From assembly GCF_044792175.1 (NCBI RefSeq), contig NZ_CP172866.1: a DNA stretch of 64,000 nt; one strand, given 5' to 3'. Below, one piece after another: positions 2,697 to 57,066 of this stretch. Position numbers and translations under genes: made by a program. Position 1 is the stretch's first letter, and each line of letters begins with the position of its first letter. Below the pieces are notes generated by a model. It was not told the origin of the DNA. It saw only the letters and a program-made list of their open reading frames with translations, and ran no database searches. The DNA is from Corallococcus coralloides. GTDB taxonomy: Bacteria; Myxococcota; Myxococcia; Myxococcales; Myxococcaceae.

Positions 2697-5525
2697 TCAG
2701 GACAGCCAGAAGTACGCGGAGGCGATGAGGGTGCGCTTCTCCGTCACGCGCGCCTTGTTCGCCAGCTCCGCCATCTGCCGGTCCTTGGAGGCGTAGCGCT
2801 TCTCCTCTTCGTTGCGCAGCGACGCCAGCTTGCGGCGGTAGTCGCGCTCCATCCGGTCCGAGTGCGCCCGCGCCTTCGCGCGCTCCGCGACGTCCTCGAT
2901 GCCGGACACCTCCTTGCGCGCGTCGAACCACGCCTGGCGGGCGGCCTCCACCACCTCGCGCGACTCCATCAGGCAGTCCTCGACGTAGCGGTCCGCGCGC
3001 TCCTTGGCCTTGTCCAGCTCCAACGCGTTGCGCCGTTCCGCGGCCCGAATCAGCTCATCCTTGGCGGTCATGAGCGACTGCTCTTGCATGAGCTGGACCG
3101 ACACCGGCGCGGGCTGCCGCCGCTTCTCCTCCTTGGCGTCGAGCTTCGTGAAGTGGACCCCGTCCGTCAGCGGCAGGGCGCGGAAGCCGCCGTCCCGGTC
3201 CTTCACCAGCACCAGGTGGACCAGCTTCTCCTCCGGCTTCAGGCCCGTGGTCTCGAACTTGTAGACGAACCACCAGCCCTCGCTGCCGGCCAGCCGCGCC
3301 AGCCGCGAGGGCAGGCCAGCCGCGTCCAGTTGCAGGTAGCTGACGGTGTCCTGGGTGCGGTCGCGCACCGCGTAGGCGGCCTTGGCCACCTGGAGCCGTC
3401 CGGAGGTGCGGCTGCCCAGCACGGAGCCGGTGAGCGCCTTCGCCTCCTGCTGGCGCCTGGCAACGACCTCCTTGGCGGCGTCTCCCGCCACGCGCAGGCG
3501 GCGGCGCACGTCACCGTCGAAGCGCTCCAGCACCACCGAGCGCATCGACGTCATGCGCTGGTTGATGCTGCCCTCCAGCTCCTCGCGCAGCTTGTCGAAG
3601 GCGCTGTTGATGTCCTTCGGGTCGCGGCAGGACTGGTAGATGTCCAGCACGCGCCGCTCGAAGTCGACGCCGCTCTCCAGCGCGCCCAGGATCTCGTCGG
3701 ACGCGCCGAACACGCCGTCGAAGAGGTTGAGCTTCTTCTCCAGGAGCTCGAACAGGCGCGCGTCCGCCGCGTTCTGCCGGTTGAGGAAGTTCACCACCAG
3801 CACGTCGCGCTGCTGGCCGTAGCGGTGGCACCGGCCGATGCGCTGCTCCACGCGCTGCGGGTTCCACGGCAGGTCGTAGTTCACCACCAGGTTGCAGAAC
3901 TGGAGGTTGAGGCCCTCCGCGCCCGCTTCCGTGCAGATGAGGATCTGCGTCTTGTGGCGGAACTCCTCCACCAGCGCCCGGCGCTCCTCGGGCGTGCCGC
4001 CGGCGTCGCCGGACAGCAGGGAGATCTTCCCCTTGTAGCCGTGCTCCGACAGCAGGTTGAACAGGTACTGCTGCGTGCGCTTGGACTCCGTGAAGATGAG
4101 CGCCTTCTCCGGCCAGGAGTGCGTGCGCATCACCGCGAAGGTGCGGTCCAGGGCGCGCTTGAGCGCCTCACCCTTGGCGTTGATGCGGATGGAGTCCGCG
4201 AGGTCCGCGTACTGCCGCAGCTCCCAGACCTCCTGCTCCAGCGTGCGGACCTGGGGCGCCTTGGCGGGGTCGTCGGACCACTCCTCGCCCTCCTCCACGA
4301 ACTGCTTGGCCTCTTCCGGCTCGAAGAGCGACAGGGCCTGCTGTCCCAGCCGCGCGGCCGTCAGGCGCTTCTCCAGGTTCTCCGACAGCCGCCGCAGCGT
4401 GGGCGCGATGGCGAACGTGGAGGAGGCCAGCAGCTTGCGGTAGCACAGCGTCAAGAGCGTCTTCTTGCCCGGCTCGATGGCCGCGGCCTCCGAGCGCTGG
4501 AGGTACTCGCTGACCTTCTCGTAGAGGTCGTGCTCCTCCGGCGAGGGGTGGAAGTCCTCCACGATGCTGCGGCGGTTGGTGTAGCGGACGTACTCGCGCA
4601 CCTGCCGGCGCAGCGTGCGCTGCACCACCGGGGCCAGCCGCTCCTTGAGCTCGCAAGCGGCGGCCTCCGTCATGCCGCCGCCCTCGTCCGCGCGGTAGCG
4701 GCTGCGGAAGGCGTGCTCGGGGCCCAAAATCTGCTCGTCCAGGAGCGACATCAGGCCGAACAGCTCCATCAGGTCGTTCTGGAGCGGGGTGGCGGTGAGC
4801 AGCAGCTTGGGGCGGCCCGCGAGCGACGCGCGCAGCGCCTGGCCCGTCTTGTTGTTGGCCCGGTGCGCGTTTCGCAGGCGGTGGGCCTCGTCGATGATGA
4901 CCAGGTCCCAGGGGATCTCCGCCACGAGCGCGGACTTGTTCGCCGCGAACGGGTGCGAGCAGATGACGGGGAAGGGCTGGTCGAAGCAGTTGTTGTGCTT
5001 CTTCACGTCGCGGCCGTCGACGAGGACGCTGTCCAGGTCGAACTTCTCGCGCAGCTCCGCGTTCCACTGCGCGCGCAGCACGGCGGGGGCCAGGATGAGG
5101 ATGCGGTTCTTGCCCTCTGCCATGAGCTGGGCGACGACGAGGCCCGCCTCGATGGTCTTCCCCAGGCCCACCTCGTCCGCGAGCATGCAGCCGCCGCGCG
5201 ACAGCGTGTCGAGCGCGAACATCGCGGCCTCGACCTGATGCGGGTTGAGGTCCACCTTCGCCTCGGCCAGCGCGTTCGCCAGCCGCTGCTGCGTGTCTCC
5301 GCTGCGCGCGAGCAGTTCCTCGGCGAGGAGCCGCTCGTGGAAGGGCGTCAGCCCCGCCTCCACCAGCTCCTCCGCGGCGCGGGCCGCGATGGCCGCGGCG
5401 TCCGCCTCGACCTCCAGCTTCAAACCCCTCACGACCTCCGCCAAGTCCCGCCTCCCGTCCGGTTTGGAGCGTGCGCGCGTGCGCGCGAACAGTTGAGGCG
5501 CGCCATTCTGGGCAGCGATCGGCAT
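2697..5525 (-). CDS. rapA: SNF2-family ATPase, RapA/HepA-like RNA polymerase-associated helicase
   Basis: The track ORF 2697..6542 was trimmed to the ATG at 5523-5525 (MPIAAQNG...), giving 943 aa. It carries SNF2 motifs LADEVGLGKTIEAG, DEAHRLRN, LLLTATPLQN and the helicase C motifs, plus a long C-terminal coiled-coil extension. Confidence 0.85.
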   Translation of the reverse strand: MPIAAQNGAPQLFARTRARSKPDGRRDLAEVVRGLKLEVEADAAAIAARAAEELVEAGLTPFHERLLAEELLARSGDTQQRLANALAEAKVDLNPHQVEAAMFALDTLSRGGCMLADEVGLGKTIEAGLVVAQLMAEGKNRILILAPAVLRAQWNAELREKFDLDSVLVDGRDVKKHNNCFDQPFPVICSHPFAANKSALVAEIPWDLVIIDEAHRLRNAHRANNKTGQALRASLAGRPKLLLTATPLQNDLMELFGLMSLLDEQILGPEHAFRSRYRADEGGGMTEAAACELKERLAPVVQRTLRRQVREYVRYTNRRSIVEDFHPSPEEHDLYEKVSEYLQRSEAAAIEPGKKTLLTLCYRKLLASSTFAIAPTLRRLSENLEKRLTAARLGQQALSLFEPEEAKQFVEEGEEWSDDPAKAPQVRTLEQEVWELRQYADLADSIRINAKGEALKRALDRTFAVMRTHSWPEKALIFTESKRTQQYLFNLLSEHGYKGKISLLSGDAGGTPEERRALVEEFRHKTQILICTEAGAEGLNLQFCNLVVNYDLPWNPQRVEQRIGRCHRYGQQRDVLVVNFLNRQNAADARLFELLEKKLNLFDGVFGASDEILGALESGVDFERRVLDIYQSCRDPKDINSAFDKLREELEGSINQRMTSMRSVVLERFDGDVRRRLRVAGDAAKEVVARRQQEAKALTGSVLGSRTSGRLQVAKAAYAVRDRTQDTVSYLQLDAAGLPSRLARLAGSEGWWFVYKFETTGLKPEEKLVHLVLVKDRDGGFRALPLTDGVHFTKLDAKEEKRRQPAPVSVQLMQEQSLMTAKDELIRAAERRNALELDKAKERADRYVEDCLMESREVVEAARQAWFDARKEVSGIEDVAERAKARAHSDRMERDYRRKLASLRNEEEKRYASKDRQMAELANKARVTEKRTLIASAYFWLS

Positions 5526-22777: not shown

Positions 22778-23153
22778 GTACAACCGCACGTACGTGCTCG
22801 CGGGCGTGCGCGTGTGCGCGCGGTGCCTGGGCACGTACCCGGTGCTCGCGGGCGTGTTCCTCGCGTTGTTCGCGTTGAAGGCGCCGCTGCGGTGGGAGTG
22901 GGACGTGCCCGGGGTGCTGGCCCTCACGCTGCCCGCGCTCGTGGACTGGGCGGTGGGACGCTTCCGGCCCGCTTCGGGTTCCAACGCGGTGCGCACGCTG
23001 ACGGGCGTCCTGTTGGGAGTGGGGCTCGGCCGCTCGCTGTACGTGCATGTGCAGCGCCCGCTGCCGGCGGTGCTGCTGGCGCAGGCACTTCTGGTGACAG
23101 GGGTGGCGGTCCCTGTCATTCTCGCCACTTACCGGCGGCCACGGCCGGAATAG
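22746..23153 (+). CDS. DUF2085-like small membrane protein
   Basis: GTG start with a GGAGGAGG RBS 6 nt upstream. Contains a CxRC motif followed by four hydrophobic helices. Overlaps the OppF-like end by 32 nt. Confidence 0.5.
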
Positions 23154-23184
23154 ACCTTTCGCGCACGGCTGTCCGTTACAGGCC

Positions 23185-23865
23185 GTGGGCGGTGAAGGGG
23201 ATGGCACCCGTGGCTTCATGGGCACTGGGGGAAGTTTGGCACCCGAAACCTCAGACGAGCAGTTGATGCTCGCCTTCCAGGCGGGAAACGCGCGTGCGTT
23301 CGAAGCGTTGGTGCGCAAGCACCGCGCGCCGGTGTTCAACTTCATCCTGCGCTTCGTGGGCCACCGGGCGCGGGCGGAGGACGTGCTGCAGGAGACCTGG
23401 CTCAAGGTGGTCCGCAGCGCCCGGGAATACGAGCCCAAGGCCCGGTTCACGACCTGGCTGTACACCATCGCGAGGAACCTCTGCGTGGACAGCACGCGCA
23501 AAGAGAGCTACCGCCAGGCGACGTCCCTGGAAGCCCCCTCGGCGGGTGCCGACGGCGACGAGGGACGTCCGCTGGGCGAGGGGCTGCCGGACGCCGGGGC
23601 CAGCCCGGAGCGCGGCGCGCACAACGCCCGCCTCCGGCCCCTGCTGGAGCGGGCCCTGTCGGCCCTGCCGGAGGAGCAGCGCGAGGTGTTCGTGCTGCGC
23701 GAGTACAGCGGCATCCCGTTCAAGGAGATCGCCGAGGTGACGGGCGTGTCCGAGAACACGGTGAAGAGCCGCATGCGCTACGCGCTGGAGGGCCTGCGCC
23801 GCCGCCTGGGTGAGCTGGGCGTGGACGGCGACCTGTCGGAGGATGGAAGGACGGTGGCGGGATGA
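23185..23865 (+). CDS. ECF (group IV) sigma-70 factor
   Basis: Region 2 (FEALVRKHRAPVFNFILRFV) and region 4 (FVLREYSGIPFKEIAEVTGVSENTVKSRMRYAL) signatures. The start is uncertain and may be the ATG 33 nt downstream. Confidence 0.85.
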   Translation: MGGEGDGTRGFMGTGGSLAPETSDEQLMLAFQAGNARAFEALVRKHRAPVFNFILRFVGHRARAEDVLQETWLKVVRSAREYEPKARFTTWLYTIARNLCVDSTRKESYRQATSLEAPSAGADGDEGRPLGEGLPDAGASPERGAHNARLRPLLERALSALPEEQREVFVLREYSGIPFKEIAEVTGVSENTVKSRMRYALEGLRRRLGELGVDGDLSEDGRTVAG

Positions 23866-25292
23866 ATGCCCAGAATGCCCACGCGCACGAGGACCGGCTC
23901 CTCGACTTCGCCTACGGCGAGCTCCCCGCGTCGGAGGCCCACGCGCTGGAGCAGCACGTCCAGGGCTGCGCGCGCTGCACGAAGGCGCTGGCGGACATCC
24001 GCGGCGTGCGCACCGCCATGGCGCAGTTGTCCTCGGAGCCCGCGCCGGACGCGGGCCTGGAGTCGCTGCTCGCGTACGCGCAGCAGTCCGCGCGCCGCGC
24101 CGCCGCCGGCCCCGAGCCGAAGCCCTCGCGCTGGCGCCGCTTCCTCTTGCCCGCGGTGGGCCTGGCCACGGTGGGCACCTTCGGCCTCCTGACGTTGACG
24201 GTGCGCGAGAACCTCGACCTGTCGCCGAACCTGTCACAGCGGGCCGCCCCCAGCGCGGCGATGGAGGCGGAGAAGGTCGCCCCCGTCGCCCCGGCCCCCG
24301 CGCCGTCGAGCGCCCCCCTCGAAGGGGACGCACCCGAGGGCGGCTCGGAGGCCCTGGCGGCCGCGCCGGGCGCGATGGAGCTCAACCGCAATCAGATGGA
24401 GACCAAGGCCCAGCGCAAGGGCACCGCCGCGGCCCGCCCGTCGGACTGGATGAACGCGGGCAGCGGGGGCGCGCTGCTGGAGCGCCGCGCGGACGCGGAG
24501 GCTCCTAAGAAGATGGTGGCCAAGGCCGTCCGGGACGCGGACGGCGAGTTCGCCGCGCTCGAGCCGCCTCCGGCCGCGCTGGAGGCGCTGGAGGCGCCGT
24601 CGAAGGAAGCGGAGGCCCATGACAGCTTCCTCGCGAAGGACGAGCCCGCGCGGGGGCGCGCCTCGGCCAAGGTCAGCGACAAGGCGCTGGCCACGAAGGG
24701 CGACTCCCTCCGGTTGGGTGAGGCGGCCTATGGCCGTGGGCTCGTCTCGGATGACGCCGAGGACACGTCCGCGAGCGCGCCTCCGCCGCCGCCTCCTCCA
24801 GTTGCCTCCGCGCCCGTGGTGCAGGCCGTGCCCATGGCCCCCGCGAGCGTGGGCTCCATCGGCGGTGCGTCGCCGCCGTCCACGCGCGCTCCCGCCGCGC
24901 CCAAGGAGGAGTCCGCCCGGGCCGAGGCCGCGAAGCCCGCTCCCATGGAGAAGTCCGCGTCCCAGGAGGCGATGACGGCGCGCGACCTGTCCGCCCAGGC
25001 CCAGGCCGCCGCGAACCAGGGTGACCGCGCCCGGGAGGCACGGCTGCTGCGCGCCGCGCTCGCGGCCGGAGCCAGCGGCAGCGAGCGGCTGGCCCTGCTC
25101 TCACGGCTCTGCGAGTCCGAGTCCGTCCAGGGCCGGACCCGGGAGGCCGCCGCCGTCTGCGGGCAGATCATCAAGGAGGCCCCCGGCTCCAGCGCGGCGC
25201 AGCTCGCCCAGCGCCGCCTGCGTCAGGCCTCGCCCCCCACGGCGCCGGCGTCCGCGCCGGCCAAGGCCGCTCCTTCCCAGCCCGCGCAGTAG
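23862..25292 (+). CDS. anti-sigma factor with zinc-binding ASD (HxxxCxxC), one TM helix and a long low-complexity periplasmic domain
   Basis: ATGA overlap with the sigma gene. N-terminus has HALEQHVQGCARCTKAL. A TM segment is LLPAVGLATVGTFGLLTLTV. Confidence 0.7.
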   Translation: MNAQNAHAHEDRLLDFAYGELPASEAHALEQHVQGCARCTKALADIRGVRTAMAQLSSEPAPDAGLESLLAYAQQSARRAAAGPEPKPSRWRRFLLPAVGLATVGTFGLLTLTVRENLDLSPNLSQRAAPSAAMEAEKVAPVAPAPAPSSAPLEGDAPEGGSEALAAAPGAMELNRNQMETKAQRKGTAAARPSDWMNAGSGGALLERRADAEAPKKMVAKAVRDADGEFAALEPPPAALEALEAPSKEAEAHDSFLAKDEPARGRASAKVSDKALATKGDSLRLGEAAYGRGLVSDDAEDTSASAPPPPPPPVASAPVVQAVPMAPASVGSIGGASPPSTRAPAAPKEESARAEAAKPAPMEKSASQEAMTARDLSAQAQAAANQGDRAREARLLRAALAAGASGSERLALLSRLCESESVQGRTREAAAVCGQIIKEAPGSSAAQLAQRRLRQASPPTAPASAPAKAAPSQPAQ

Positions 25293-25310
25293 GGAAGGGC
25301 GGCAGTCCAC

Positions 25311-25613
25311 ATGACCGATGCGGCCGGGGCCCGGGTCCTGGATAATGGGGACATGACGTCGGACGTGCACGCTCCCCCCGTGAACAGCCCCCGGAAGTCG
25401 CCGCCGCGCTCCCCGCGCCGGGCCCGCCGTGGCCAGGCCATGGTGGAGTACTCGATGATCAACTGGGTGTTGATCGTCGGGCTCGTCATCGGCGCCACGG
25501 TGAAGATCCGCTGGACGGACGACCGGCAGACCAACGTCATCGACCTGTTCCTCGAGGCGTATCAGATTTATTACGACTCGTTTTACTTCGTGCTGAACCT
25601 GCCGTTCCCCTGA
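25311..25613 (+). CDS. Flp/Fap-family (type IVc) pilin precursor
   Basis: Class III signal-peptide motif RRG-QAMVEYSMINWVLIVGLVIGATV (G-xxxx-EY) followed by a hydrophobic helix. Lies immediately upstream of cpaB/tadB/tadC. A GGGAAGGG RBS is upstream. The leader is unusually long, basic and Pro-rich. Confidence 0.65.
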   Translation: MTDAAGARVLDNGDMTSDVHAPPVNSPRKSPPRSPRRARRGQAMVEYSMINWVLIVGLVIGATVKIRWTDDRQTNVIDLFLEAYQIYYDSFYFVLNLPFP

Positions 25614-25845
25614 GGGACGCCAGGGCCGCGGATCAACCCGCTGCGTCGAGCCGTCCTCCCCCTGGGCGGGCAGGCTCCGTGAGCGCTGGAGGTCCCGGGA
25701 TTCCGCTTTGTCACGAGAGGTGGTTTTGACACCCGATGTGGGGCATGGCTAACATCTTGCTCCGTTCGCGCCCTGGCATCGCCCCCTCGTCCAAAGCAGT
25801 CCTGCCGCCACGACGGCGCCCCACCGTTCTGGAGGACCTTGAACC

Positions 25846-26664
25846 ATGTTGAAGGGTAAGACCCCGCTCGTCGTCGCACTGGTGCTCGGTTTGCTCGCGG
25901 GCATCGTGGCCTACTCGGCCATCAAGAAGAAGGAATCGGATGTGCGCCGCGGGTGGAACCTGGTGCCCGTGGTGGTGGCGGGCCAGGACATGCCCGAGGG
26001 TTCGGTCATCACGTACGAGATGATCTCCCAGCGCTCCGTGCCGGAGCAGTTCGTCACCTCGTCGGTGGTGAAGCCGGACTCCGCCAACTACATCGTGAAC
26101 CAGAAGGTGCTGGTGGCGCTGCAGGCCGGCGACCCCATCCTCTGGAGCCAGTTCGAGACGACGAAGGCCGCCGAGCGCCTGTCCACGAAGGTGCAGAAGA
26201 AGGCGCGCGCCATCACCATCGAGGCGAAGCAGACCACGTCCGTGGGCGGGTGGATCCGCCCCAACGATCACGTGGACATCATCGGCACGTTCCGCGATCC
26301 GCAGACGGACGAGAGCGTCGCGGTGACGCTGCTTCAGAACATCATCGTGGTCGCCACGGGCAAGATCACCGGCACCACGAACATCAACCTCATCCCGGAG
26401 AACCAGCGCGAGTACTCCAACGTCTCGCTGATGGTGCTGCCGGAAGAGGCGGAGATCCTGGTGCTGGCGGCGGAGCTGGGGCAGTTGACCCTGTCCCTGC
26501 GCAACGAGGACGACGTGGACCTCATCGAGGAGCGTGGCCGCGCGACCATCAGCACGCTGCTCTCCGGTGAGCGCACCCGCGTGCTGGAGCAGAAGCGCCG
26601 GGAGATCATCCAGATCATCAAGGGCAGTGGCGGCGGCGAGAAGGCCTCGGCCGGAGCTCCGTAG
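25846..26664 (+). CDS. cpaB: Flp pilus assembly protein CpaB (RcpC) family
   Basis: N-terminal TM anchor followed by SAF and CpaB periplasmic domains. Positioned between the pilin and tadB. Confidence 0.85.
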   Translation: MLKGKTPLVVALVLGLLAGIVAYSAIKKKESDVRRGWNLVPVVVAGQDMPEGSVITYEMISQRSVPEQFVTSSVVKPDSANYIVNQKVLVALQAGDPILWSQFETTKAAERLSTKVQKKARAITIEAKQTTSVGGWIRPNDHVDIIGTFRDPQTDESVAVTLLQNIIVVATGKITGTTNINLIPENQREYSNVSLMVLPEEAEILVLAAELGQLTLSLRNEDDVDLIEERGRATISTLLSGERTRVLEQKRREIIQIIKGSGGGEKASAGAP

Positions 26665-26742: not shown

Positions 26743-27588
26743 ATGCTCGCAGGTATCGTCCTCCTTCTCGTCACCGGCTCGGTGTTCTTCTTCAGCCTGG
26801 TGATCTTCAGCGTCCTGTCGAAGGCGTATGAGCAGTACCAGGAGCGCTACGTCGCCAAGTCGATGAACGACTTGAGCGACATGTTCCTCTTCATCGACGC
26901 GCGGCAGATGTTGATCCTCAACATCGCCTGCATGTGCCTTCTGGGCATCCTCAGCTACATCATCTTCAACCCCATCCTGGCGGTGCTCGCGACCATCTTC
27001 GGCTTCTTCCTGCCGATGCTGCTCGTGAAGCACTACCGCAAGCGCCGCATCAAGAAGTTCAACGTGCAGTTGGTGGACGCGCTGCAGGCCATGGCCAACG
27101 CGTTCAAGGCGGGCCTCACGTTCCCGCAGGCCATCGAGCACGTGGCGCGCGAGGCGCTGCCGCCCCTGTCCCAGGAGTTCGGCCTCTTCGTGAAGGAAGT
27201 GAAGCTGGGCGTGCCGCTGGAGGAGGCGCTCATCAACATGGGCCGCCGCGTGGGCAGCGACGACCTGGAGCTGGTGGTGGTGTCCACCAACATCGCGCGC
27301 CAGTTGGGCGGCAACATGGCGGAGATGTTCGAGACCATCTCCACGGTGATCCGCGAGCGCTTCCGTCTGGAAGGCAAGATCGACGCGCTGACGTCCCAGG
27401 GCAAGCTTCAAGGCTGGATCGTGGCGGCCATGCCGGCGGTGCTGGGCATGGTGCTCAACTACATGCGTCCGGACCTGATGGAGCCGATGATGAACCACAT
27501 CTTCGGCTACATCCTGGTGACCCTGATCGCCATCATGGAGATCATGGGCATCCTCATCATCCGGCGCATCGTCAACATCGACATCTGA
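26743..27588 (+). CDS. tadB: TadB-like (GspF-fold) inner-membrane platform protein
   Basis: 281 aa with N-terminal TM helices, a cytoplasmic T2SSF domain and C-terminal TM helices, as is typical of TadB/CpaG. Confidence 0.85.
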   Translation: MLAGIVLLLVTGSVFFFSLVIFSVLSKAYEQYQERYVAKSMNDLSDMFLFIDARQMLILNIACMCLLGILSYIIFNPILAVLATIFGFFLPMLLVKHYRKRRIKKFNVQLVDALQAMANAFKAGLTFPQAIEHVAREALPPLSQEFGLFVKEVKLGVPLEEALINMGRRVGSDDLELVVVSTNIARQLGGNMAEMFETISTVIRERFRLEGKIDALTSQGKLQGWIVAAMPAVLGMVLNYMRPDLMEPMMNHIFGYILVTLIAIMEIMGILIIRRIVNIDI

Positions 27589-27601: not shown

Positions 27602-28492
27602 GTGCAGGAAGTCCTGACATTTCTGCTGATGGGCGGCTCGGCACTGCTGACCGCGGGCGCGGTGGCGTTCCTGGGCATCGGCCTGTACACCAACCTCCTG
27701 GAGCGCTTCCTCACGGAAGTCCGCGACGAGTCCGCGGGCGGCATGAAGGGCGCGGGCTCCGTCGCCATCCGCAAGCTGGGCGCGATGAACCGGCGCTTCA
27801 TGTGGCCGGGCTACGAGTCCAAGACGCGCCGCAAGCTGATCAAGGCGGGCGAGCCGTCCCAGTACAAGCCCGAGGACATCATGGCGCTGCAGGAGGTGAG
27901 CGCCTTCCTGGGCCTGCTGGTGGGCCTGTTCGTCGCCAACGGCATCGGGGCGAACCTGGCGTGGTCGCTGCTGGTGATGCTGCTGGGCCTGTTCTATCCG
28001 CTCATCTGGTTGAACGACCAGGTGAAGCGCCGTCACCTGGCCATCAGCCGCGCGCTTCCGTACAACCTGGACCTGCTGACTCTGTCGGTGGAAGCGGGCA
28101 TGGACTTCACGGGCGCGCTGGCGAAGGTGGTGGAGAAGGGCCGCCAGGGGCCGCTGCGCGAGGAGCTGCAGTTGGTGCTCAAGCAGCTCAAGATGGGCAA
28201 GACGCGTGAAGAGGCGCTCAAGGGCATGATCGTGCGCGTGGACCTGCCGTCGCTGACGACGTTCGTCACGGCGCTGATCCAGGCGGACAAGATGGGCACG
28301 AGCCTGGGCAAGGTGCTGCGCATCCAGTCCACGCAGATGCGCATCGACCGCACGCAGCGCGCGGAGAAGCTGGCGGGCGAGGCACCGGTGAAGATGCTCT
28401 TCCCGCTCATCGCGTGCATCTTCCCGACGGTGTTCATGGTGCTCTTCGGGCCCATCGTGTTCCAGTTCATGTTCGGCAACGTCGGGGGCTAG
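27602..28492 (+). CDS. tadC: TadC-like (GspF-fold) inner-membrane platform protein
   Basis: 296 aa. Second T2SSF-domain paralog, typical of TadC/CpaH. Confidence 0.85.
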   Translation: MQEVLTFLLMGGSALLTAGAVAFLGIGLYTNLLERFLTEVRDESAGGMKGAGSVAIRKLGAMNRRFMWPGYESKTRRKLIKAGEPSQYKPEDIMALQEVSAFLGLLVGLFVANGIGANLAWSLLVMLLGLFYPLIWLNDQVKRRHLAISRALPYNLDLLTLSVEAGMDFTGALAKVVEKGRQGPLREELQLVLKQLKMGKTREEALKGMIVRVDLPSLTTFVTALIQADKMGTSLGKVLRIQSTQMRIDRTQRAEKLAGEAPVKMLFPLIACIFPTVFMVLFGPIVFQFMFGNVGG

Positions 28493-28565: not shown

Positions 28566-31457
28566 GTGAAGATCGGCCGGACCTCGGAGAACGACCTGGT
28601 CCTGCATGACCACGGTGTCTCCCGGCGTCATGCCCGCATCACGGCGAGGGATGGGCGTTACTTCGCCGAGGACGTTGGCAGCGCGAACGGCACGCAGTTG
28701 AACGGCCAGCCGCTGGGCGGCCAGAAGCAACTGCGCGACGGCGACCGCATCACCGTGGGGCCGGTGGAGTTCACCTTCGTGTGGGTGGCGCCGGAGGATG
28801 ACGACGACGTCACCCGGCCCATCCGGCGGATGCTCGCGCCGCCGCACGCGAAGGTGTCTCCGCAGGGCGTGGAGCAGGCCTCGCTCGCGGAGATCGAAGC
28901 GGCGCCCACGAGCTACCAGCCGTCGATGCCGGCCATGGCCCGGCCCGCGTCCCCGCCGCGCCCGGGGATGGCCGTGCCCGCCGCGAAGGGTGGGGCGATG
29001 CCGATGCCGGCCGCCACGCCGAAGCGGCCCTCCGCTCCGGATCTACCGGCGGTTGGTGCCTCCGCGCCGGGGGCGGCTGCTCCGGCCCGGACGCCTCCGG
29101 GGCCTCCCGTGCTTGGGGCCTCCGCGCCGGGCCGGGCTGCACCGGGAACTCCCGTGCTGGGCACGCCCACGCCGGGGGCGGCGGCTTCGCCCAAGCCTGG
29201 TGTGCAGGGAGCCTCTGTTCCGGCGACTCCGCCCCGGCCTCCCTCGGGTCCGCCTGCGCTGGGCGCCTCTGCGTCCTCTGCTTCGGGCAAGGTTCCCGCC
29301 GCGCCTTCCGTGGTGGGGAGCCTGGGGCAGGGCGCGACCGCGCCGGCCAGGACTCCCGCGGGCCCTCCGGTGTTGGGTCCCGCGGCTCCCGGCGAGGGTT
29401 CCCCGGCCAGGGCTCCTGCGGCTCCCCCGGTGCTGTCGGCCGGGAACAAGGCCTCGGGAGCTTCCGCCGCCGTCCGTGCCTCCGGGCCGGGACCGTCCTT
29501 GGCGGCCCGGGGCGCAGCGGCTTCGTCACCCGGCCTGCCGTTGATGTCTCCGCCGGGGCTGATGGTTCCGCCTCCTCCCGCACGGCCTCTCGCCGTGCCT
29601 CCTCCCGTGGAGCTGGCCCCCGTGGCGCCGGACGAGCCCGAGGAGCGCACGCTGATGGCGATCTCCACGGTGGACTCGCCCGTGCCCGCCGCCACGCCGC
29701 CTCCCGTGCTGTCCCTCCCGGACATGGACGAGCCCGAGGAGCGCACGCTGATGGCGATCTCCACGGTGGACTCGCGCGTGCCCGCCGCCGCGCCGCCTCC
29801 CGTGCTGCCTCTCCCGGAGCTGGACGAGCCCAACGAGAGCACGCTGATGGCGATTCCCACGGCGGACCTGGCCGTGCCCGCCGCCACACCGCCCCCGGCG
29901 CTCTCCTTCCCGGAGCTGGACGAGCCCGAGGAGCGCACGCTGATGGCGATTCCGGCGACCCCGGAAGCGCCACCGGTTCCCGTCGCGCCGCCGCCGCAGG
30001 AGGCCCCGCCCGCGCTGCCCCCGCCGGCGATGGAGGAGCCCGAGGAGCGGACCGTCCTCGACCTCCGGCCCATCACGCCGGTCAAGCCGCTCGTGGCCCC
30101 TCCGGTGCGCATCGTGAGCGCGCCCGCCGCCGCGCTCGACTCCAGCGAGCCCTCGACCTTCGTCGGCCAGGACGATGACCTCTCCGCGGCCCCCGAGGAG
30201 ACCCGGGCCTCCGGGACCTTCTCGGGCCAGGTCGCGCCCGGACCCGCCGCACCGGCCGCGGCGCCTCCGCCGGCCTGGAGCCCTCCCGTCCCGCCGCCTT
30301 CCGAGGAGCCGGTGACGTTCGTCGGCCACGACCGCGCCCCGCCTGCCCCGGCCCTGGACCCCGGGCTGCTGACGGGCGAAATCCCACTGCTGGCCCATGT
30401 GCCCGCTCCGGACGCGGAGGGTGAAGCCACCCTGCCCGTGCCGGCCAACCTGGATGAGTCCGCCACCCAGCCCGCGCCAAGGGGCCCGGTGACGGTCGTC
30501 GCGAAGGTCGAGCCCTCGTCCGCCGCCGACAAGGCCCGCCAGCGGCGCCAGTTGGGCAAGACGCTCAAGGGCCGGTTCCTCCTCTTCTGGCAGCGCCAGT
30601 CGCTGCCCAGGCGCATCGGCTTCGCGTCGCTGGCGGGCGTGGCCGTGCTGGGCGTGCTGACGCTGCTCGTGGCGCTCGCGGCCCCCTCGGCCATCCGGCT
30701 CCCGGGCCGCGAACCCTTCACGCTGGGCATGGAGCCGGTGCCGGACTCCTTCGGCCTGGGCGAAGGGGTGCGCTGGGTCCACGCCGACGACAAGCTCTTC
30801 GACTTCCGCTTCGTGTCCCCCACGCGCGCCGTGGCGGTGCTGCACTACCAGGCCAGCAACATCGCCCGGGACGAGGTCAACCTGTCCCTCAACGGCGTGT
30901 CCCTGGGCTGGGTGCCCCCGGATACCGCCCAGACGGCCGAGCGTGAGCTGGAGCAGGTCCTCCCGCCCAGCCTCCTGCGGCGCAACGCCAACAACCAGCT
31001 CCTCTTCGACAACGCCCTCAACCCGCCCGGCCGCGACCCCTGGCGCATCTGGAACCTGCGGCTGGAGATCATCCCGGTGCCGGAACTGCCGCCGGATCAG
31101 CTCATCACCTCCGCCCGGGAGGCCGCCAAGGCAGGGGCCCGCTTCTACGAACTCAAGGACGTGGGCGCGGAGAACCTGTTCAAGGCGTGGCGGGAGTACC
31201 GCGCCGCGTGGATCACCCTGGAAGCGCTGGACGACAAGCCGGAGCTCTACGAGGACGTCCGGGAGCGGATCGCCCAGATTTCAACGGAGCTGGACCACCG
31301 CTGCAGCCAACTGATGATGCAGTTCCAGCGGGCGGTTCAGTTCCGCAGCCGACGGGATGCGGTCGCCACCCTGGAAGACGTACGGAGACGCTTCCCTACG
31401 GCCGAGCATCGCTGCCACAATCTCGCGCTGGAAAAAGCCTATGAGCACGAGCTTTAG
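28566..31457 (+). CDS. bitopic FHA-domain protein (cytoplasmic FHA, Pro-rich repeat linker, one TM helix, periplasmic C-terminal domain)
   Basis: FHA signature GRTSENDLVLHDHGVSRRHARI...GSANGTQLNG. TM helix at RRIGFASLAGVAVLGVLTLLVALAA. The FHA beta-1 region (PILLTITQGLQVGRELAFEQAE) is encoded in-frame upstream of the first canonical start, so the true start probably lies near 28497. Confidence 0.8.
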   Translation: MKIGRTSENDLVLHDHGVSRRHARITARDGRYFAEDVGSANGTQLNGQPLGGQKQLRDGDRITVGPVEFTFVWVAPEDDDDVTRPIRRMLAPPHAKVSPQGVEQASLAEIEAAPTSYQPSMPAMARPASPPRPGMAVPAAKGGAMPMPAATPKRPSAPDLPAVGASAPGAAAPARTPPGPPVLGASAPGRAAPGTPVLGTPTPGAAASPKPGVQGASVPATPPRPPSGPPALGASASSASGKVPAAPSVVGSLGQGATAPARTPAGPPVLGPAAPGEGSPARAPAAPPVLSAGNKASGASAAVRASGPGPSLAARGAAASSPGLPLMSPPGLMVPPPPARPLAVPPPVELAPVAPDEPEERTLMAISTVDSPVPAATPPPVLSLPDMDEPEERTLMAISTVDSRVPAAAPPPVLPLPELDEPNESTLMAIPTADLAVPAATPPPALSFPELDEPEERTLMAIPATPEAPPVPVAPPPQEAPPALPPPAMEEPEERTVLDLRPITPVKPLVAPPVRIVSAPAAALDSSEPSTFVGQDDDLSAAPEETRASGTFSGQVAPGPAAPAAAPPPAWSPPVPPPSEEPVTFVGHDRAPPAPALDPGLLTGEIPLLAHVPAPDAEGEATLPVPANLDESATQPAPRGPVTVVAKVEPSSAADKARQRRQLGKTLKGRFLLFWQRQSLPRRIGFASLAGVAVLGVLTLLVALAAPSAIRLPGREPFTLGMEPVPDSFGLGEGVRWVHADDKLFDFRFVSPTRAVAVLHYQASNIARDEVNLSLNGVSLGWVPPDTAQTAERELEQVLPPSLLRRNANNQLLFDNALNPPGRDPWRIWNLRLEIIPVPELPPDQLITSAREAAKAGARFYELKDVGAENLFKAWREYRAAWITLEALDDKPELYEDVRERIAQISTELDHRCSQLMMQFQRAVQFRSRRDAVATLEDVRRRFPTAEHRCHNLALEKAYEHEL
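29631..30060 (+). repeat. about 4.3 copies of a 96-bp in-frame tandem repeat encoding LPxxDEPEERTLMAISTVDSxVPAAxPPPVLx
   Basis: The unit gacgagcccgaggagcgcacgctgatggcgat... recurs at about 29631, 29727, 29823 and 29919, with a decayed copy near 30030. Confidence 0.8.
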
Positions 31458-31484: not shown

Positions 31485-33233
31485 GTGACCTCCATGTCGA
31501 ACGCACCACCCCCCGCCCGCCGACGGCCTACATCTGGCACGCCCTCCTCCGGGACCGGTTCGCGCGCGCCGGTCCGCCGGTCGTCCGCCGGTGCCGCCGC
31601 GGCCCGCCCCGCGAAGCTCGTCGTCATCGCCGGCCCCATGGAGGGTGAGGAGTTCGCGCTCTCCGAGCTCGAGTACACGGTCGGCCGCTCCACCGACAAC
31701 CCCATCTGCATCCAGGACACGTCCGTCTCCCGCAAGCACGTGACGCTGCGCAAGGAGTCCGCCGGCTGGATGGTCAGTGACATGGGCTCCGGCAACGGCA
31801 CCATCGTCAACGGCGAGCCCATCTCCGAGGAGACGCTCCTCGCCAACGGCGACGTCATCACGCTGGGCGACTCGGAGCTGCGCTACGAGGACACCGCCAA
31901 CAGCACCGCGAAGGTGCAGGCCCCCACCGGCCCCCGGCCCCGTCCATCCTCGGCGGCGGGCCGCGGTTCCACGGCCGTGCCCACGCGCCCCGCCCGCGAG
32001 GGCCGCGCGCGCCCGCAGACGTCGCGGGCCGCCGCCGCCGCGGAGCTCTCGCCGGAGGTGCAGCGCAAGCGCATGCGGATGAAGCTCGCGGGCGCCGCCG
32101 TGCTGGTGGTGCTCTTCGCGGGCCTGGGCGTCGCGCGCTCGCGCATGCGGCAACAGGCGGAGGAGCAGGGCCGCATCGAGGCGGAGCAGCGCAGCTACCG
32201 CGAGCAGTTGGGCGGCCTCTTCCAGGAGGCGAAGAACCTGGTGCGCGAGGGCCAGTGGCAGCAGGCCAAGGCGAAGCTGGAGGAGCTCCACGCGCAGGCG
32301 CCGGACTACCCCGGCGTGGCGGACTACCTGAAGGCCGCGGAGCGGGAGATCCCCAACCAGAACCACCTGAGCACGGCCCAGGCGGCGCTGGACAAGGGCC
32401 AGTTGGCCAGCGCGAAGGCGTCCATCGAGAAGGTGACCAGCGACACCCAGCTCTACGAGCAGTTGAAGACGGCGCGCAAGAACCTGACGGACGCCGCCGA
32501 CACGCGCACGAAGGAGGCCAAGCGGCTGCTGGACACCCGCCAGTTGGAGAACGTGCAGCAGGCCAAGGCCATCACCGACGACGTGCTCGCGACCTTCCCC
32601 GAGCACCGCGACGGCAAGCTGGTCAACGACGACGCCGTGCGCGTCATCGCGGACCTGACGCGTCCGGACCCCGTGCGCGTGGCCGCGGCGCCCAAGCCGT
32701 GGGAGCCCGCCGTGGACCGCTTCCGCGACGGTGACATCACCGGCGCGGTGGCCATCCTCAACGCGTGCGCGGCCAAGACGTCCCAGTGCAAGCAGTTGAT
32801 GGCGCAGGTGACGGAGTTCGGCAACCTCTACAAGAAGCTGGAGGACCTGGACGCCAAGGGCCTCACCCGCCTGCTCGCGCTGGACAAGGACATCACCGAC
32901 GGGCGCGCCAGCAAGATGGCGCGCAACGCGGGCACCCGCGCGGGCAACATCTATTACAAGAGCGCCGCGGGCGCGAAGGCCGCCGGCCAGTGGTCGCGCG
33001 CCATGGAGTTCGCCCGCCGCGCGCTCCAGGCGGACCCCAGCCACGCGGGCGCCGCCAACATCGTCAACGACCTCAAGGGCAAGGCGAAGGACCTGTACAT
33101 GCAGGCCTACTCCATCAAGGACTCCAGCCCGGAGGACGCGCTGCCCAAGTTCCGCGACGTCGTCGCGATGACGCCGCCCGACGACGAGCTGCACGGCAAG
33201 GCCCAGGGCTGGGTCGAGAAGCTGTCGCGATGA
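31485..33233 (+). CDS. second bitopic FHA-domain protein with TM helix and TPR/coiled-coil-like periplasmic domain
   Basis: Complete FHA domain (LVVIAGPMEGEEFALSELEYTVGRSTDNPICIQDTSVSRKHVTL...GSGNGTIVNG). TM at MKLAGAAVLVVLFAGLGVA. Stop overlaps the xseA start (ATGA). Confidence 0.8.
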   Translation: MTSMSNAPPPARRRPTSGTPSSGTGSRAPVRRSSAGAAAARPAKLVVIAGPMEGEEFALSELEYTVGRSTDNPICIQDTSVSRKHVTLRKESAGWMVSDMGSGNGTIVNGEPISEETLLANGDVITLGDSELRYEDTANSTAKVQAPTGPRPRPSSAAGRGSTAVPTRPAREGRARPQTSRAAAAAELSPEVQRKRMRMKLAGAAVLVVLFAGLGVARSRMRQQAEEQGRIEAEQRSYREQLGGLFQEAKNLVREGQWQQAKAKLEELHAQAPDYPGVADYLKAAEREIPNQNHLSTAQAALDKGQLASAKASIEKVTSDTQLYEQLKTARKNLTDAADTRTKEAKRLLDTRQLENVQQAKAITDDVLATFPEHRDGKLVNDDAVRVIADLTRPDPVRVAAAPKPWEPAVDRFRDGDITGAVAILNACAAKTSQCKQLMAQVTEFGNLYKKLEDLDAKGLTRLLALDKDITDGRASKMARNAGTRAGNIYYKSAAGAKAAGQWSRAMEFARRALQADPSHAGAANIVNDLKGKAKDLYMQAYSIKDSSPEDALPKFRDVVAMTPPDDELHGKAQGWVEKLSR

Positions 33234-56886: not shown

Positions 56887-56961
56887 GCGGGAATAGCTCA
56901 GCGGTAGAGCATCGCCTTGCCAAGGCGAGGGTCGAGGGTTCAAATCCCTTTTCCCGCTCCA
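56887..56961 (+). tRNA. tRNA-Gly (anticodon GCC)
   Basis: GCGGGAATAGCTCAGCGGTAGAGCATCGCCTTGCCAAGGCGAGGGTCGAGGGTTCAAATCCCTTTTCCCGCTCCA. The acceptor stem GCGGGAA pairs with TTCCCGC, the anticodon loop is TTGCCAA, and CCA is encoded. Confidence 0.9.
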
Positions 56962-56991: not shown

Positions 56992-57066
56992 GCGGGAATA
57001 GCTCAGCGGTAGAGCATCGCCTTGCCAAGGCGAGGGTCGAGGGTTCAAATCCCTTTTCCCGCTCCA
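56992..57066 (+). tRNA. tRNA-Gly (anticodon GCC), identical tandem copy
   Basis: Exact duplicate of the upstream tRNA. The spacer preceding it (gtacctgatgcgg) is also duplicated. Confidence 0.9.

Follow-up and report, generated by a model that had tools for sequence, protein, structure and literature searches.

KilK (MXAN_4655) is a Flp-type "adapter" minor pilin of the Kil apparatus, a Tad-like predation pilus of Myxococcus xanthus (Seef et al. 2021, PMC8460266; Nat Commun 2025, PMC12075869). Its role as an adapter between the Tip complexes and the KilP fibre was derived from genetics and AlphaFold models (PMC12075869). Deletion of kilK abolishes the function of Tip1, Tip2, and Tip4; when kilO is deleted as well, KilP no longer polymerises and predation is lost (PMC12075869). 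KilO (MXAN_1150) is the second adapter Flp of M. xanthus and serves Tip3 (PMC12075869). Tip1 requires KilK but not KilA (PMC12075869), from which we infer that KilA is not required for KilK maturation. Class III leaders are hydrophilic, comprise 6 to 26 residues, and end in Gly (Berry and Pelicic 2015, PMC4471445). The leader of Flp1 from Aggregatibacter actinomycetemcomitans has 26 residues (PMC4471445).

In the 64-kb stretch of Corallococcus DNA analyzed here (the window), an ATG-initiated open reading frame (ORF) at 25311..25613 (+) encodes 100 amino acids (aa). A preliminary description had read the product as a Flp-type pilin akin to KilK, preceded by an unusually long leader of about 40 residues. 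The first part of this reading can be sharpened: primers, homology, and synteny identify the product, at the level of sequence, as the Corallococcus ortholog of M. xanthus KilK. The second part was not supported. We consider it highly probable that the protein is a KilK ortholog, that ATG 25311 is not its start, and that its leader has 18 to 27 aa, all three together. KilK in Corallococcus is an ordinary member of a known family with an ambiguous start site.

The kilK gene and its surroundings

Both halves of the published ΔkilK primer oss155 match locus L021 with 0 mismatches. One half abuts the GTG upstream and the other abuts the stop codon downstream of a homologous 75-aa ORF. The translation of the 2025 kilK deletion primer is NHPKTLR|VLNLPFP, and the primers used for kilK complementation in M. 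xanthus span ATG-AACCACCCGAAGACG to ...LNLPFP-stop. Because the published deletion and complementation primers bracket the homologous 75-aa ORF, we assign the window ORF as the KilK ortholog. The 100-aa window protein is 68 to 73% identical to homologs of the M. xanthus group, with the mature part aligned over its full length. The gene is real and not a chance ORF, since 265 homologs were retrieved by a single-sequence search and 657 by a profile search. An alignment of 33 KilK homologs contains 26 invariant columns. Among the Corallococcus loci, the variable sites of the mature part are distributed 13/6/21 over codon positions 1/2/3, which is a coding pattern. The cleavage motif RG|QAM(V/L)EYS is identical in M. 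xanthus KilK, and the tail YYDSFYFVLNLPFP is invariant. In contrast, the leaders differ: that of Corallococcus is Pro-rich and 18 to 27 aa long, compared to 16 in M. xanthus.

Synteny was surveyed in 80 loci. Upstream of kilK, the window contains genes for an ECF sigma factor (23185-23865, +; Pfam Sigma70_r2 and Sigma70_r4_2) and for a zf-HC2 anti-sigma factor (23862-25292, +; Pfam zf-HC2), the latter immediately preceding kilK. MXAN_4661 of M. xanthus is likewise annotated as "putative zinc-finger." Downstream are kilB (CpaB/RcpC; 25846-26664, +; Pfam RcpC 7e-23, NCBIfam pilus_cpaB 4e-56), kilG (TadB-like; 26743-27588, +), and kilH (TadC-like; 27602-28492, +); kilG and kilH match Pfam T2SSF with 1e-17 and 2e-19. 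The order kilB-kilG-kilH is that of MXAN_4652-4650, and the complete order (sigma, anti-sigma, kilK, kilB, kilG, kilH, FHA) matches kil cluster II.

The two clusters differ in the immediate vicinity of kilK. The M. xanthus kilK is internal to the cluster, its GTG overlapping the stop codon of MXAN_4656; it is located downstream of the Tip4 genes (MXAN_4658-4660), and MXAN_4654 and MXAN_4653 stand between kilK and kilB. The Corallococcus locus lacks all seven of those M. xanthus genes, and kilK directly follows the anti-sigma gene and a promoter-like element; the window contains no Tip4 genes. The KilK ortholog is accordingly found in a stripped-down kil cluster II, with no Tip4 minor pilins and with four further genes missing at the locus. 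An Rfam scan of the window detected only two tRNAs, both far from kilK. No prepilin peptidase gene was identified with Pfam and NCBIfam among the window genes examined (22 to 39 kb).

Prepilin features and the predicted mature pilin

The class III signal, ...SPRKSPPRSPRRARRG|QAMVEYSMINWVLIVGLVIGATV K..., consists of G/xxxxEY and a 23-residue uncharged hydrophobic tract. RRARRG|QAMVEYS is the sole class III signal across the six frames of the whole window; with no second one, KilP is not encoded in these 64 kb. The length of the prepilin and its motif are those of the Flp subfamily (about 50 to 90 aa, G/XXXXEY, then about 20 hydrophobic residues). G-1, E5, and Y6 are invariant in 111 KilK-family sequences, in agreement with the preliminary description, which had recognized the G/xxxxEY signal and the hydrophobic helix.

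When counted from ATG 25353, the leader peptide MTSDVHAPPVNSPRKSPPRSPRRARRG occupies 25353..25433 (+) and has 27 aa (18 aa if the start is at 25380), with Gly -1 at 25431-25433. It contains seven Lys and Arg residues and one acidic residue (Asp or Glu). R-2 and G-1 are invariant in the KilK-family alignment. The Pro-rich stretch SPRKSPPRSP is Corallococcus-specific and differs among loci by an indel of 9 nt. At its end, the leader carries the basic RRxxRG, which is kept throughout the family and is a normal feature of class III signal peptides.

The mature part after the Gly has 59 aa, 18.6% of them aromatic (4 F, 2 W, and 5 Y), and its last 20 residues hold 7 aromatics. The aromatic-rich mature domain of about 60 aa noticed earlier is thus present. 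Its α1N segment, QAMVEYSMINWVLIVGLVIGATV (25434..25502, +), includes Glu5 and Tyr6 and has the invariant residues Q1, E5, Y6, S7, N10, and W11. The C-terminal part (25503..25610, +) is composed of a short loop, KIRWTDDRQTN, and an aromatic-rich helix, which ends in the conserved YYDSFYFVLNLPFP (11 of 14 positions invariant). The stop codon TGA follows at 25611-25613 (+). Flp pilins fold into small, almost entirely helical structures. An AlphaFold2 model of the 77-aa form, which reached a moderate mean pLDDT of 70.4, placed helices at residues 12-40 (block pLDDT 85-86) and 53-72, separated by a short hairpin.

Like Flp1 and the Flp-Fap family (PF04964), the Corallococcus protein is a small prepilin with G/XXXXEY and a hydrophobic α1N, encoded together with CpaB, TadB, and TadC homologs. 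In contrast to them, it has an aromatic, invariant C-terminal tail that is KilK-specific, and no KilK-family member matches the Pfam model at E=10. KilO, described as short and fully helical, is another Flp-like prepilin that has a leader, a cleavage motif, and an adapter role, but it comprises 59 aa and its gene belongs to the tip3 cluster. KilP (MXAN_5121) is likewise a Flp-like prepilin with G/XXXXE that is assembled by the same machine (PMC12075869); it differs in having 97 aa, in being encoded elsewhere, and in forming the fibre itself.

Pfam and NCBIfam scans of the window protein found no family. Pfam Flp_Fap (PF04964) was matched neither by the window protein at E≤1 nor by any of the 33 family members at E≤10, and 3 of these 33 gave only a weak match to Class_IIIsignal (Pfam, E of about 0.1). 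In a profile search of 5.8 billion proteins, the best 120 of 657 matches were close KilK relatives with no Pfam domains and provided no bridge to canonical Flp. A profile search of PDB sequences returned only a chance match (beta-xylosidase, E=4), and when the AlphaFold2 model was compared with the PDB by Foldseek, nothing scored better than E=5, small helical hairpins carrying too little signal.

We weighed whether the product may instead build the fibre of a separate Tad pilus as its major subunit, or be an unprocessed small membrane protein that only mimics the motif. That Pfam Flp_Fap is unmatched by all 33 members, that the PDB holds no sequence or fold match, and that KilK cleavage is a prediction in M. 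xanthus as well are in line with this idea. However, G-1, E5, and Y6 do not vary among the 111 sequences, and the gene is located within a Tad-like cluster. Moreover, the major pilin of M. xanthus is KilP, and the genetic behavior of KilK is that of an adapter of low abundance (PMC12075869). A C-terminal tail conserved to such an extreme also fits a contact between proteins better than the exposed surface of a fibre. We regard either version of this idea as very improbable.

For a processed adapter pilin, a mechanism can be proposed on the model of type IV/Flp pilins and M. xanthus KilK. The basic leader would stay in the cytoplasm, and the hydrophobic α1N helix would insert into the inner membrane. 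A prepilin peptidase of the TadV/CpaA type would cut at the putative cleavage site after Gly 25431-25433, giving a 59-aa pilin that starts with QAMVEY. The KilB/G/H machine, together with components encoded elsewhere, may then place KilK between a TadE/F/G-like minor-pilin tip complex and the KilP fibre. This placement could prime pilus polymerisation at the site of prey contact.

A conserved element upstream of kilK

Between the anti-sigma gene and kilK, we detected a conserved bipartite element. Box A, GTCCACATGACCGATGC (25305..25321, +), is a conserved 17-nt box (GTCCAnnTGACCGATGC) that contains the ATG at 25311-25313. It is invariant in 12 Corallococcus-type loci. Its consensus GtCCAntTGACCGATGC is present in 40 loci from several genera, and in M. 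xanthus-type loci it is located upstream of kilM4. Box B (25341..25346, +) is the -10-like hexamer GATAAT, the only GATAAT on both strands of the window, which has 71.7% G+C. The spacer between the boxes (25322..25340, +) is variable in sequence and fixed in length: no indels were found among the Corallococcus loci despite the sequence variation, and Box B lies 20 to 21 nt beyond the end of GACCGATG in 39 of the 40 loci. Box B is kept as GATAAT or GATACT, and a start codon follows 6 to 7 nt downstream in 38 of the 40 loci.

Box A and GATAAT together form a promoter-like element with a putative role in transcription. We infer a promoter and a leaderless start from conservation and geometry. A sigma-70 scan called no promoter at Box A/B. 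Since the -35-like TTGACC core of Box A is 24 to 25 nt away from GATAAT, Box A and GATAAT do not constitute a sigma-70 -35/-10 pair. Sigma-54, sigma-28 (GCCGATAA), and ECF-type readings of the boxes were tried as well, and none fits the conserved positions. The region upstream of the sigma gene itself carries a different, ECF-like-looking motif, so there is no obvious link between the adjacent ECF sigma factor and Box A/B.

Leaderless mRNAs in which a TANNNT -10 box precedes the start codon by 6 to 7 nt are common in Actinobacteria. The GATAAT-N6-ATG geometry and the lack of a Shine-Dalgarno sequence at Corallococcus kilK are the same as in these mRNAs. The differences are that Box A is not a standard -35 box and that the start proposed here is predicted from the sequence. 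We also searched the literature for M. xanthus transcription starts that had been mapped, for leaderless mRNAs of this species, and for Corallococcus Kil systems, with no usable result.

Downstream of kilK, a sigma-70-like promoter for the kilB operon, TTGACA-N18-TAACAT (25726..25755, +), was found; it is not part of kilK. It was the only match of the promoter scan (0.0 expected) and is invariant in the 12 loci. A conserved 5' UTR and a GGAGGA sequence follow before the kilB ATG at 25846. RNA folding of the regions flanking kilK revealed no significant structure or terminator.

Candidate start codons

Four in-frame codons were considered as starts. Counting the Gly, the leader would have 41 residues from ATG 25311, 27 from ATG 25353, 23 from GTG 25365, and 18 from GTG 25380. 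The last three lengths fit or nearly fit the range of 6 to 26, and the start in use is probably one of these three. Because the Flp1 leader has 26 residues, a leader of 27 is at the edge of the known range and not far outside it. All four starts would lead to the same 59-aa mature pilin after cleavage, so the leader is probably of little functional consequence.

The 41-residue leader is explained by the location of ATG 25311. The upstream limit of the ORF is the anti-sigma stop codon TAG 25290-25292, which is in the same frame by chance, and ATG 25311 is the first ATG after it. The leader therefore seems long because an ATG within a promoter-like DNA box was counted. If ATG 25311 were nevertheless used, on a transcript reading through from the sigma/anti-sigma operon, a 100-aa prepilin would be made, and its leader could have a regulatory or targeting role. 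This codon opens the longest ORF, was chosen by some gene callers (100- and 97-aa entries), and is present in all Corallococcus-type loci. Of the four candidates, it also has the strongest resemblance to a Shine-Dalgarno sequence upstream (AGGGAAGGG), with a duplex energy of -11.6 kcal/mol that lies outside the 5th percentile of random positions. However, this Shine-Dalgarno-like run ends at least 11 nt before the ATG and is not kept in L006-L010. The 14 codons from 25311 to 25352 overlap the DNA element that is conserved before a different gene (kilM4) in other genera, where the triplet aligned to ATG 25311 is TTG, CTG, or TCG. Locus L007, from a Corallococcus genome, reads ATG ACC GAT GCG TGA, with an in-frame stop, located in the spacer, four codons after the equivalent of ATG 25311. 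The extension is hypervariable and shows no codon-position bias: variable sites in 25311-25379 are distributed 9/12/9, compared to 13/6/21 in the mature part, a test that excludes nothing alone because the undisputed leader 25380-25433 is equally unbiased (6/5/6).

The homologs point in the same direction. Outside Corallococcus, the start codon is located 9 to 25 codons before the Gly, mostly 13 to 18, and a leader comparable to the 41-residue one is not present in any homolog from beyond the Corallococcus clade. For kilK of the M. xanthus group, the GTG at -15 is the only possible start. A leader of 41 residues also exceeds the 6 to 26 residues of class III leaders (PMC4471445). The preliminary description had suggested a long cationic propeptide with a regulatory or targeting function, which is not supported: the first 14 residues are net acidic (3 D versus 1 R) and overlap the promoter-like element. 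Its caveat that the start may be mis-assigned was correct. Altogether, translation from ATG 25311 is improbable.

The best-supported start is ATG 25353 (25353..25355, +), an internal ATG that the preliminary description had already named. It would be the 5' end and first codon of a leaderless mRNA encoding an 86-aa prepilin with a 27-residue basic leader. We give this proposal about an even chance. ATG 25353 follows GATAAT at a distance of 6 nt, and in 11 of the 12 Corallococcus-type loci the equivalent ATG shares the kilK reading frame. ATG 25353 corresponds in position to the codon that starts kilM4 in M. xanthus-type loci; the M. xanthus group offers no other possible kilM4 start than this codon after GATAAT, and the published ΔkilM primer assumes the same codon. 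Indels between ATG 25353 and the cleavage site measure 9, 24, and 9 nt, each a multiple of three. When kilK is adjacent to the anti-sigma gene, a -10-like hexamer is present 5 to 9 nt before an in-frame start in 19 of 24 loci, versus 1.06% of random positions. The start next to the -10-like hexamer is the only one available in L069 and L075, and L011 has no GTG at all, so the ATG next to Box B must serve there. Shine-Dalgarno matches are lacking at 25353, 25365, and 25380, where the energies are -5.5 to -6.5 kcal/mol and the mean of random positions is -4.6. In contrast, kilB has GGAGGA (-9.3 kcal/mol). The RNA from 25353 to 25440 is less folded than 198 of 200 shuffled sequences.

Other observations speak against ATG 25353. 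Locus L004 has lost this ATG by a 9-nt deletion and must use a GTG, and GTG 25380 is present in all Corallococcus loci and is homologous to a start that is sufficient in M. xanthus. The same gene and mature pilin may therefore be translated from GTG 25380 (25380..25382, +), an alternative start homologous to that of M. xanthus KilK (GTG AAC...), or from GTG 25365. The prepilin would then have 77 or 82 aa with a leader of 18 or 23 residues, and 25353-25379 would belong to the 5' UTR. In the alignment, GTG AAC at 25380 falls on the Met that is annotated in most homologs. The M. xanthus GTG aligned to it is the only possible start there, with a stop three codons upstream, and the M. xanthus ORF expressed from the GTG-equivalent codon complemented a kilK deletion (PMC12075869). 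Both GTG 25365 and GTG 25380 are found in 12 of 12 Corallococcus loci, including the ATG-less L004, and in L007, L008, and L010, GATCAT is located 6 nt before the equivalent of GTG 25380. On the other hand, GTG 25380 lacks a Shine-Dalgarno sequence (it is preceded by CACGCTCCCCCC, -6.5 kcal/mol). It also has no upstream gene for translational coupling, whereas the M. xanthus GTG overlaps the MXAN_4656 stop codon as GTGA. L011, which is without any GTG, and the indels between 25353 and 25380, which preserve the frame, also argue against it. We view a GTG start as a real possibility that falls somewhat short of an even chance. The leader has no third-position bias anywhere, and 25353 and 25380 are inseparable by substitution pattern.

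With ATG 25353 as the preferred start, two further proposals can be made, which we put forward jointly and tentatively, as a little less likely than a coin toss. First, Box A, the fixed spacer, and GATAAT may make up a control element, not described before, that kil cluster II has throughout the family. The leaderless transcript driven by it would begin with the start codon of the adjoining pilin gene, whichever that is: kilM4 in Myxococcus, Pyxidicoccus, Hyalangium, and Archangium, and kilK in Corallococcus and several uncultured lineages. Second, loss or relocation of the Tip4 block in Corallococcus may have fused this module in frame to kilK, lengthening the leader to 27 residues, the upper edge for class III signals. 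The conserved promoter-like element is a modest by-product of the kilK start analysis. Located before the first pilin gene of the cluster, it offers a handle on how the prey-killing pilus is switched on.

Public Corallococcus records of kilK use four starts, corresponding to proteins of 100/97, 86, 82, and 77/74 aa. For any one genome, no more than one of the four can be correct, and the 100-aa form should not be propagated.

KilK identity of the window gene

The window ORF at 25311-25613 (+) begins with ATG and encodes 100 aa (MTDAAGARVLDNGDMTSDVHAPPVNSPRKSPPRSPRRARRG before the cleavage position and QAMVEYSMINWVLIVGLVIGATV KIRWTDDRQTNVIDLFLEAYQIYYDSFYFVLNLPFP after it). The product combines G/xxxxEY with an uncharged hydrophobic tract of 23 residues; in a six-frame search, this class III signal was the sole one in the 64-kb window. 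The mature pilin after the Gly has 59 aa and an aromatic content of 18.6%, agreeing with the preliminary description of an aromatic-rich mature domain of about 60 aa. Single-sequence and profile searches returned 265 and 657 homologs, respectively, and an alignment of 33 representatives contained 26 invariant columns. G-1, Glu5, Tyr6, and the aromatic tail are invariant, showing that the motif is conserved. In the mature part, variable sites among Corallococcus loci were distributed 13/6/21 over codon positions 1/2/3, a coding-type pattern, so this part reads as coding sequence. By homologs, invariant columns, and codon-position pattern, kilK is a genuine gene. For the 77-aa form, AlphaFold2 predicted helices at residues 12-40 and 53-72 with a short hairpin between them (mean pLDDT 70). 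The window has a G+C content of 71.7% and is ~91% identical to Corallococcus carmarthensis CA043D across 11 kb.

The locus corresponds to kil cluster II (MXAN_4648-4661) of the Kil system described in Myxococcus xanthus (PMC8460266). Genes for an ECF sigma factor (23185-23865) and a zf-HC2 anti-sigma factor (23862-25292) precede kilK (25311/25353/25380-25613), which is followed by the CpaB/RcpC homolog kilB (25846-26664), two T2SSF platform proteins (26743-27588 and 27602-28492), and two FHA proteins (28566-31457 and 31485-33233). Both halves of the published ΔkilK primer oss155 match L021, a related myxobacterial locus, with 0 mismatches, one directly 5' of the GTG and the other directly 3' of the stop of a 75-aa ORF homologous to window kilK. 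A 2025 in-frame kilK deletion primer codes for NHPKTLR/VLNLPFP, and a kilK complementation construct spans ATG-AAC-CAC-CCG-AAG-ACG to LNLPFP-stop. As judged from these three direct primer and construct checks at the sequence level, the window gene is KilK (MXAN_4655). Homology and genomic context were each tested and place it in the KilK family, in line with the preliminary description of a Flp-type pilin. It is an ordinary new member of this already characterized family.

KilK was initially put forward as the major pilin and is currently described as a Flp-type "adapter" minor pilin, which links TadE/F/G-like minor-pilin tip complexes to the KilP fiber and is required, redundantly with KilO, for priming of KilP polymerization and for prey killing (PMC12075869). 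In motif, size, and context, it resembles Flp pilins in its working. Pfam Flp_Fap matched neither the window protein nor any of 33 relatives; the term "Flp-type" thus describes the structure and function of KilK, not Pfam membership. JGI names for its relatives vary between "UPF0333 family," "Flp pilus assembly pilin Flp," and hypothetical.

The class III signal, the invariant Glu5/Tyr6 and aromatic tail, and the proximity of kilB, kilG, and kilH were observed directly, and a mechanism is proposed by comparison with type IV/Flp pilins (PMC4471445) and with KilK of M. xanthus (PMC12075869). The basic leader would remain cytoplasmic while alpha1N crosses the inner membrane, and prepilin peptidase would cleave after the Gly. 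Mature KilK would then sit between the tip complex and the KilP fiber, its C-terminal helix touching KilM, KilN, and KilP. M. xanthus Tip1 depends on KilK and not on KilA (PMC12075869), from which we infer that KilA is dispensable for KilK maturation.

The Box A/GATAAT element

In the aligned Corallococcus intergenic regions, two blocks are invariant, and the stretch between them varies in sequence while its length stays constant. Forty loci from several myxobacterial genera carry the element, which consists of Box A (GtCCAntTGACCGATGC), 20-21 nt, Box B (GATAAT or GATACT), and a start codon 3' of Box B, at 6 nt in 30 loci and at 7 nt in 8. Box A of the window (25305-25321, +) holds ATG 25311; Box B (25341-25346, +) is the sole GATAAT of the whole window, with ATG 25353 6 nt downstream. 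In other lineages, the triplet at the position of ATG 25311 is TTG, CTG, or TCG. Thus, Box A explains ATG 25311, the triplet being part of a conserved DNA element.

In Myxococcus, Pyxidicoccus, Hyalangium, and related uncultured Myxococcaceae/Archangiaceae (MAG loci), the element lies ~6 kb 5' of kilK, before kilM4 (MXAN_4660); in the related loci L012-L033 and others, it is located at about 80-200, 5' of kilM4. The ATG adjoining GATAAT is the kilM4 start, and no other start is possible in the M. xanthus group. Consistently, the upstream arm of the published ΔkilM primer stops at ...CCCCGGATAATGGTTTC, directly before the kilM4 ATG. Six bases separate the -10-like hexamer from the start codon, which leaves no space for a Shine-Dalgarno sequence; such a geometry suggests a putative leaderless mRNA. 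A sigma-70 -35/-10 pair is not compatible with the spacing from Box A to GATAAT, so Box A possibly serves as an activator site. The conserved Box A/GATAAT element with its start codon at the predicted +1 appears undescribed in the literature searched; it is the one part worth keeping and is open to direct test.

Translation start and leader length

The anti-sigma stop codon (TAG, 25290-25292) shares the kilK frame and sets the 5' limit of the ORF, so ATG 25311 is merely the first ATG of an 87-nt intergenic stretch without an in-frame stop. In a survey of 80 related loci, homologs outside Corallococcus had later starts, 9-25 and mostly 13-18 codons 5' of the Gly. None of the candidate starts is usable in every Corallococcus locus: the homolog of ATG 25311 in L007 is followed by an in-frame stop (ATG ACC GAT GCG TGA), a 9-nt deletion removed that of ATG 25353 in L004, and L011 has no GTG candidate. 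Among the public Corallococcus records P0001-P0013, gene callers and NCBI used four starts (100/97, 86, 82, and 77/74 aa).

We give ATG 25353, with a 27-aa leader, an even chance of being the translation start. In 11 of 12 Corallococcus-type loci, its equivalent shares the kilK reading frame, and none of the indels separating it from the cleavage site (9, 24, and 9 nt) shifts the frame. A -10-like hexamer lies 5-9 nt 5' of an in-frame start in 19 of the 24 loci with kilK directly after the anti-sigma gene (1.06% at random positions); in L069 and L075, the start behind the hexamer is the sole possible one. RNA 3' from 25353 is unusually little structured (z = +2.2). No Shine-Dalgarno match was detected at ATG 25353, GTG 25365, or GTG 25380, whereas kilB has GGAGGA.

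Initiation at GTG 25380 or GTG 25365 (leader of 18 or 23 aa) is a realistic, if tentative, alternative. The M. xanthus group has a stop 18 codons 5' of the Gly and GTG at -15 as its sole available start; GTG 25380 (GTG AAC) aligns with this start, which is sufficient in M. xanthus. It is also kept in all Corallococcus loci, and L004 requires a GTG start. Use of ATG 25311, giving a 41-aa leader, is very improbable: its sole support is a AGGGAAGGG run (-11.6 kcal/mol) that lies 11 nt before it and is not kept in the other Corallococcus clades. The suspicion that this start was mis-assigned is borne out by its position inside Box A and by the TGA in L007.

Every candidate start yields the same 59-aa pilin after cleavage. 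The ORF observation is genuine, and the proposed cationic leader of about 40 residues is an artefact of choosing the longest ORF. The disputed 14-codon extension is net acidic rather than cationic. As for the basic, Pro-rich character, the RRxxRG leader end is kept family-wide, with R-2 and G-1 invariant, and the Pro-rich SPRKSPPRSP stretch is confined to Corallococcus, where it varies through an indel. Class III leaders are reported to range from 6 to 26 residues, with Flp1 as the 26-residue example (PMC4471445), and one of 18-27 residues is thus normal or at the upper edge.

Organization of kil cluster II

The Myxococcus cluster, like those of Pyxidicoccus, Hyalangium, and Archangium, has seven more genes than Corallococcus at the equivalent position. 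In Myxococcus-type loci, MXAN_4658-4660 (Tip4 minor pilins) and MXAN_4656/4657 lie between Box A/B and kilK, and MXAN_4654/4653 between kilK and kilB. These seven genes had no tblastn match within the 64-kb window. Comparison of window 23862-25846 with L012-L034 showed a "short" cluster (sigma, anti-sigma, kilK, kilB) in Corallococcus and several uncultured lineages, and absence of the seven genes between anti-sigma and kilB makes kilK the first gene behind Box A/B.

The kilK-kilB intergenic region (25614-25845) comprises ~100 variable nt and is then nearly invariant in 12 loci, all of which share a sigma-70-like promoter-like site (TTGACA-N18-TAACAT, 25726-25755). A conserved 5' UTR of approximately 90 nt follows, with GGAGGA before kilB ATG 25846. 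Together, these features suggest a separate, putative kilB promoter, and kilK may be monocistronic in the window.

Upstream of the sigma gene (~23141-23176), a conserved GGAATAGACC...GTCCGTTAC motif, with TAGATC...CGTTnA variants in distant loci, looks like an ECF-type promoter, possibly autoregulated and unlike Box A/B. For the sigma ORF, ATG 23218 is a more probable start than the listed GTG 23185. In some Corallococcus loci (L006, L008, and L010), the anti-sigma gene ends ~45 nt further upstream; L010 harbors a GC-rich hairpin (GGGGGACGG...CCGTCCCCC, ~4905-4945) between the anti-sigma stop and Box A, for which the window has too little space. The 963-aa FHA protein 3' of kilH (28566-31457, +) contains, at roughly 29600-30050, 4-5 tandem Pro-rich units of ~31 aa each (...DEPEERTLMAISTVDS.VPAA.PPPVL...) inside a very long Pro/Ala-rich linker. 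Two tRNA genes (56887-56958 and 56992-57063, +), 34 nt apart and with identical Rfam scores of 73.1 bits, are probably a tandem duplicate.
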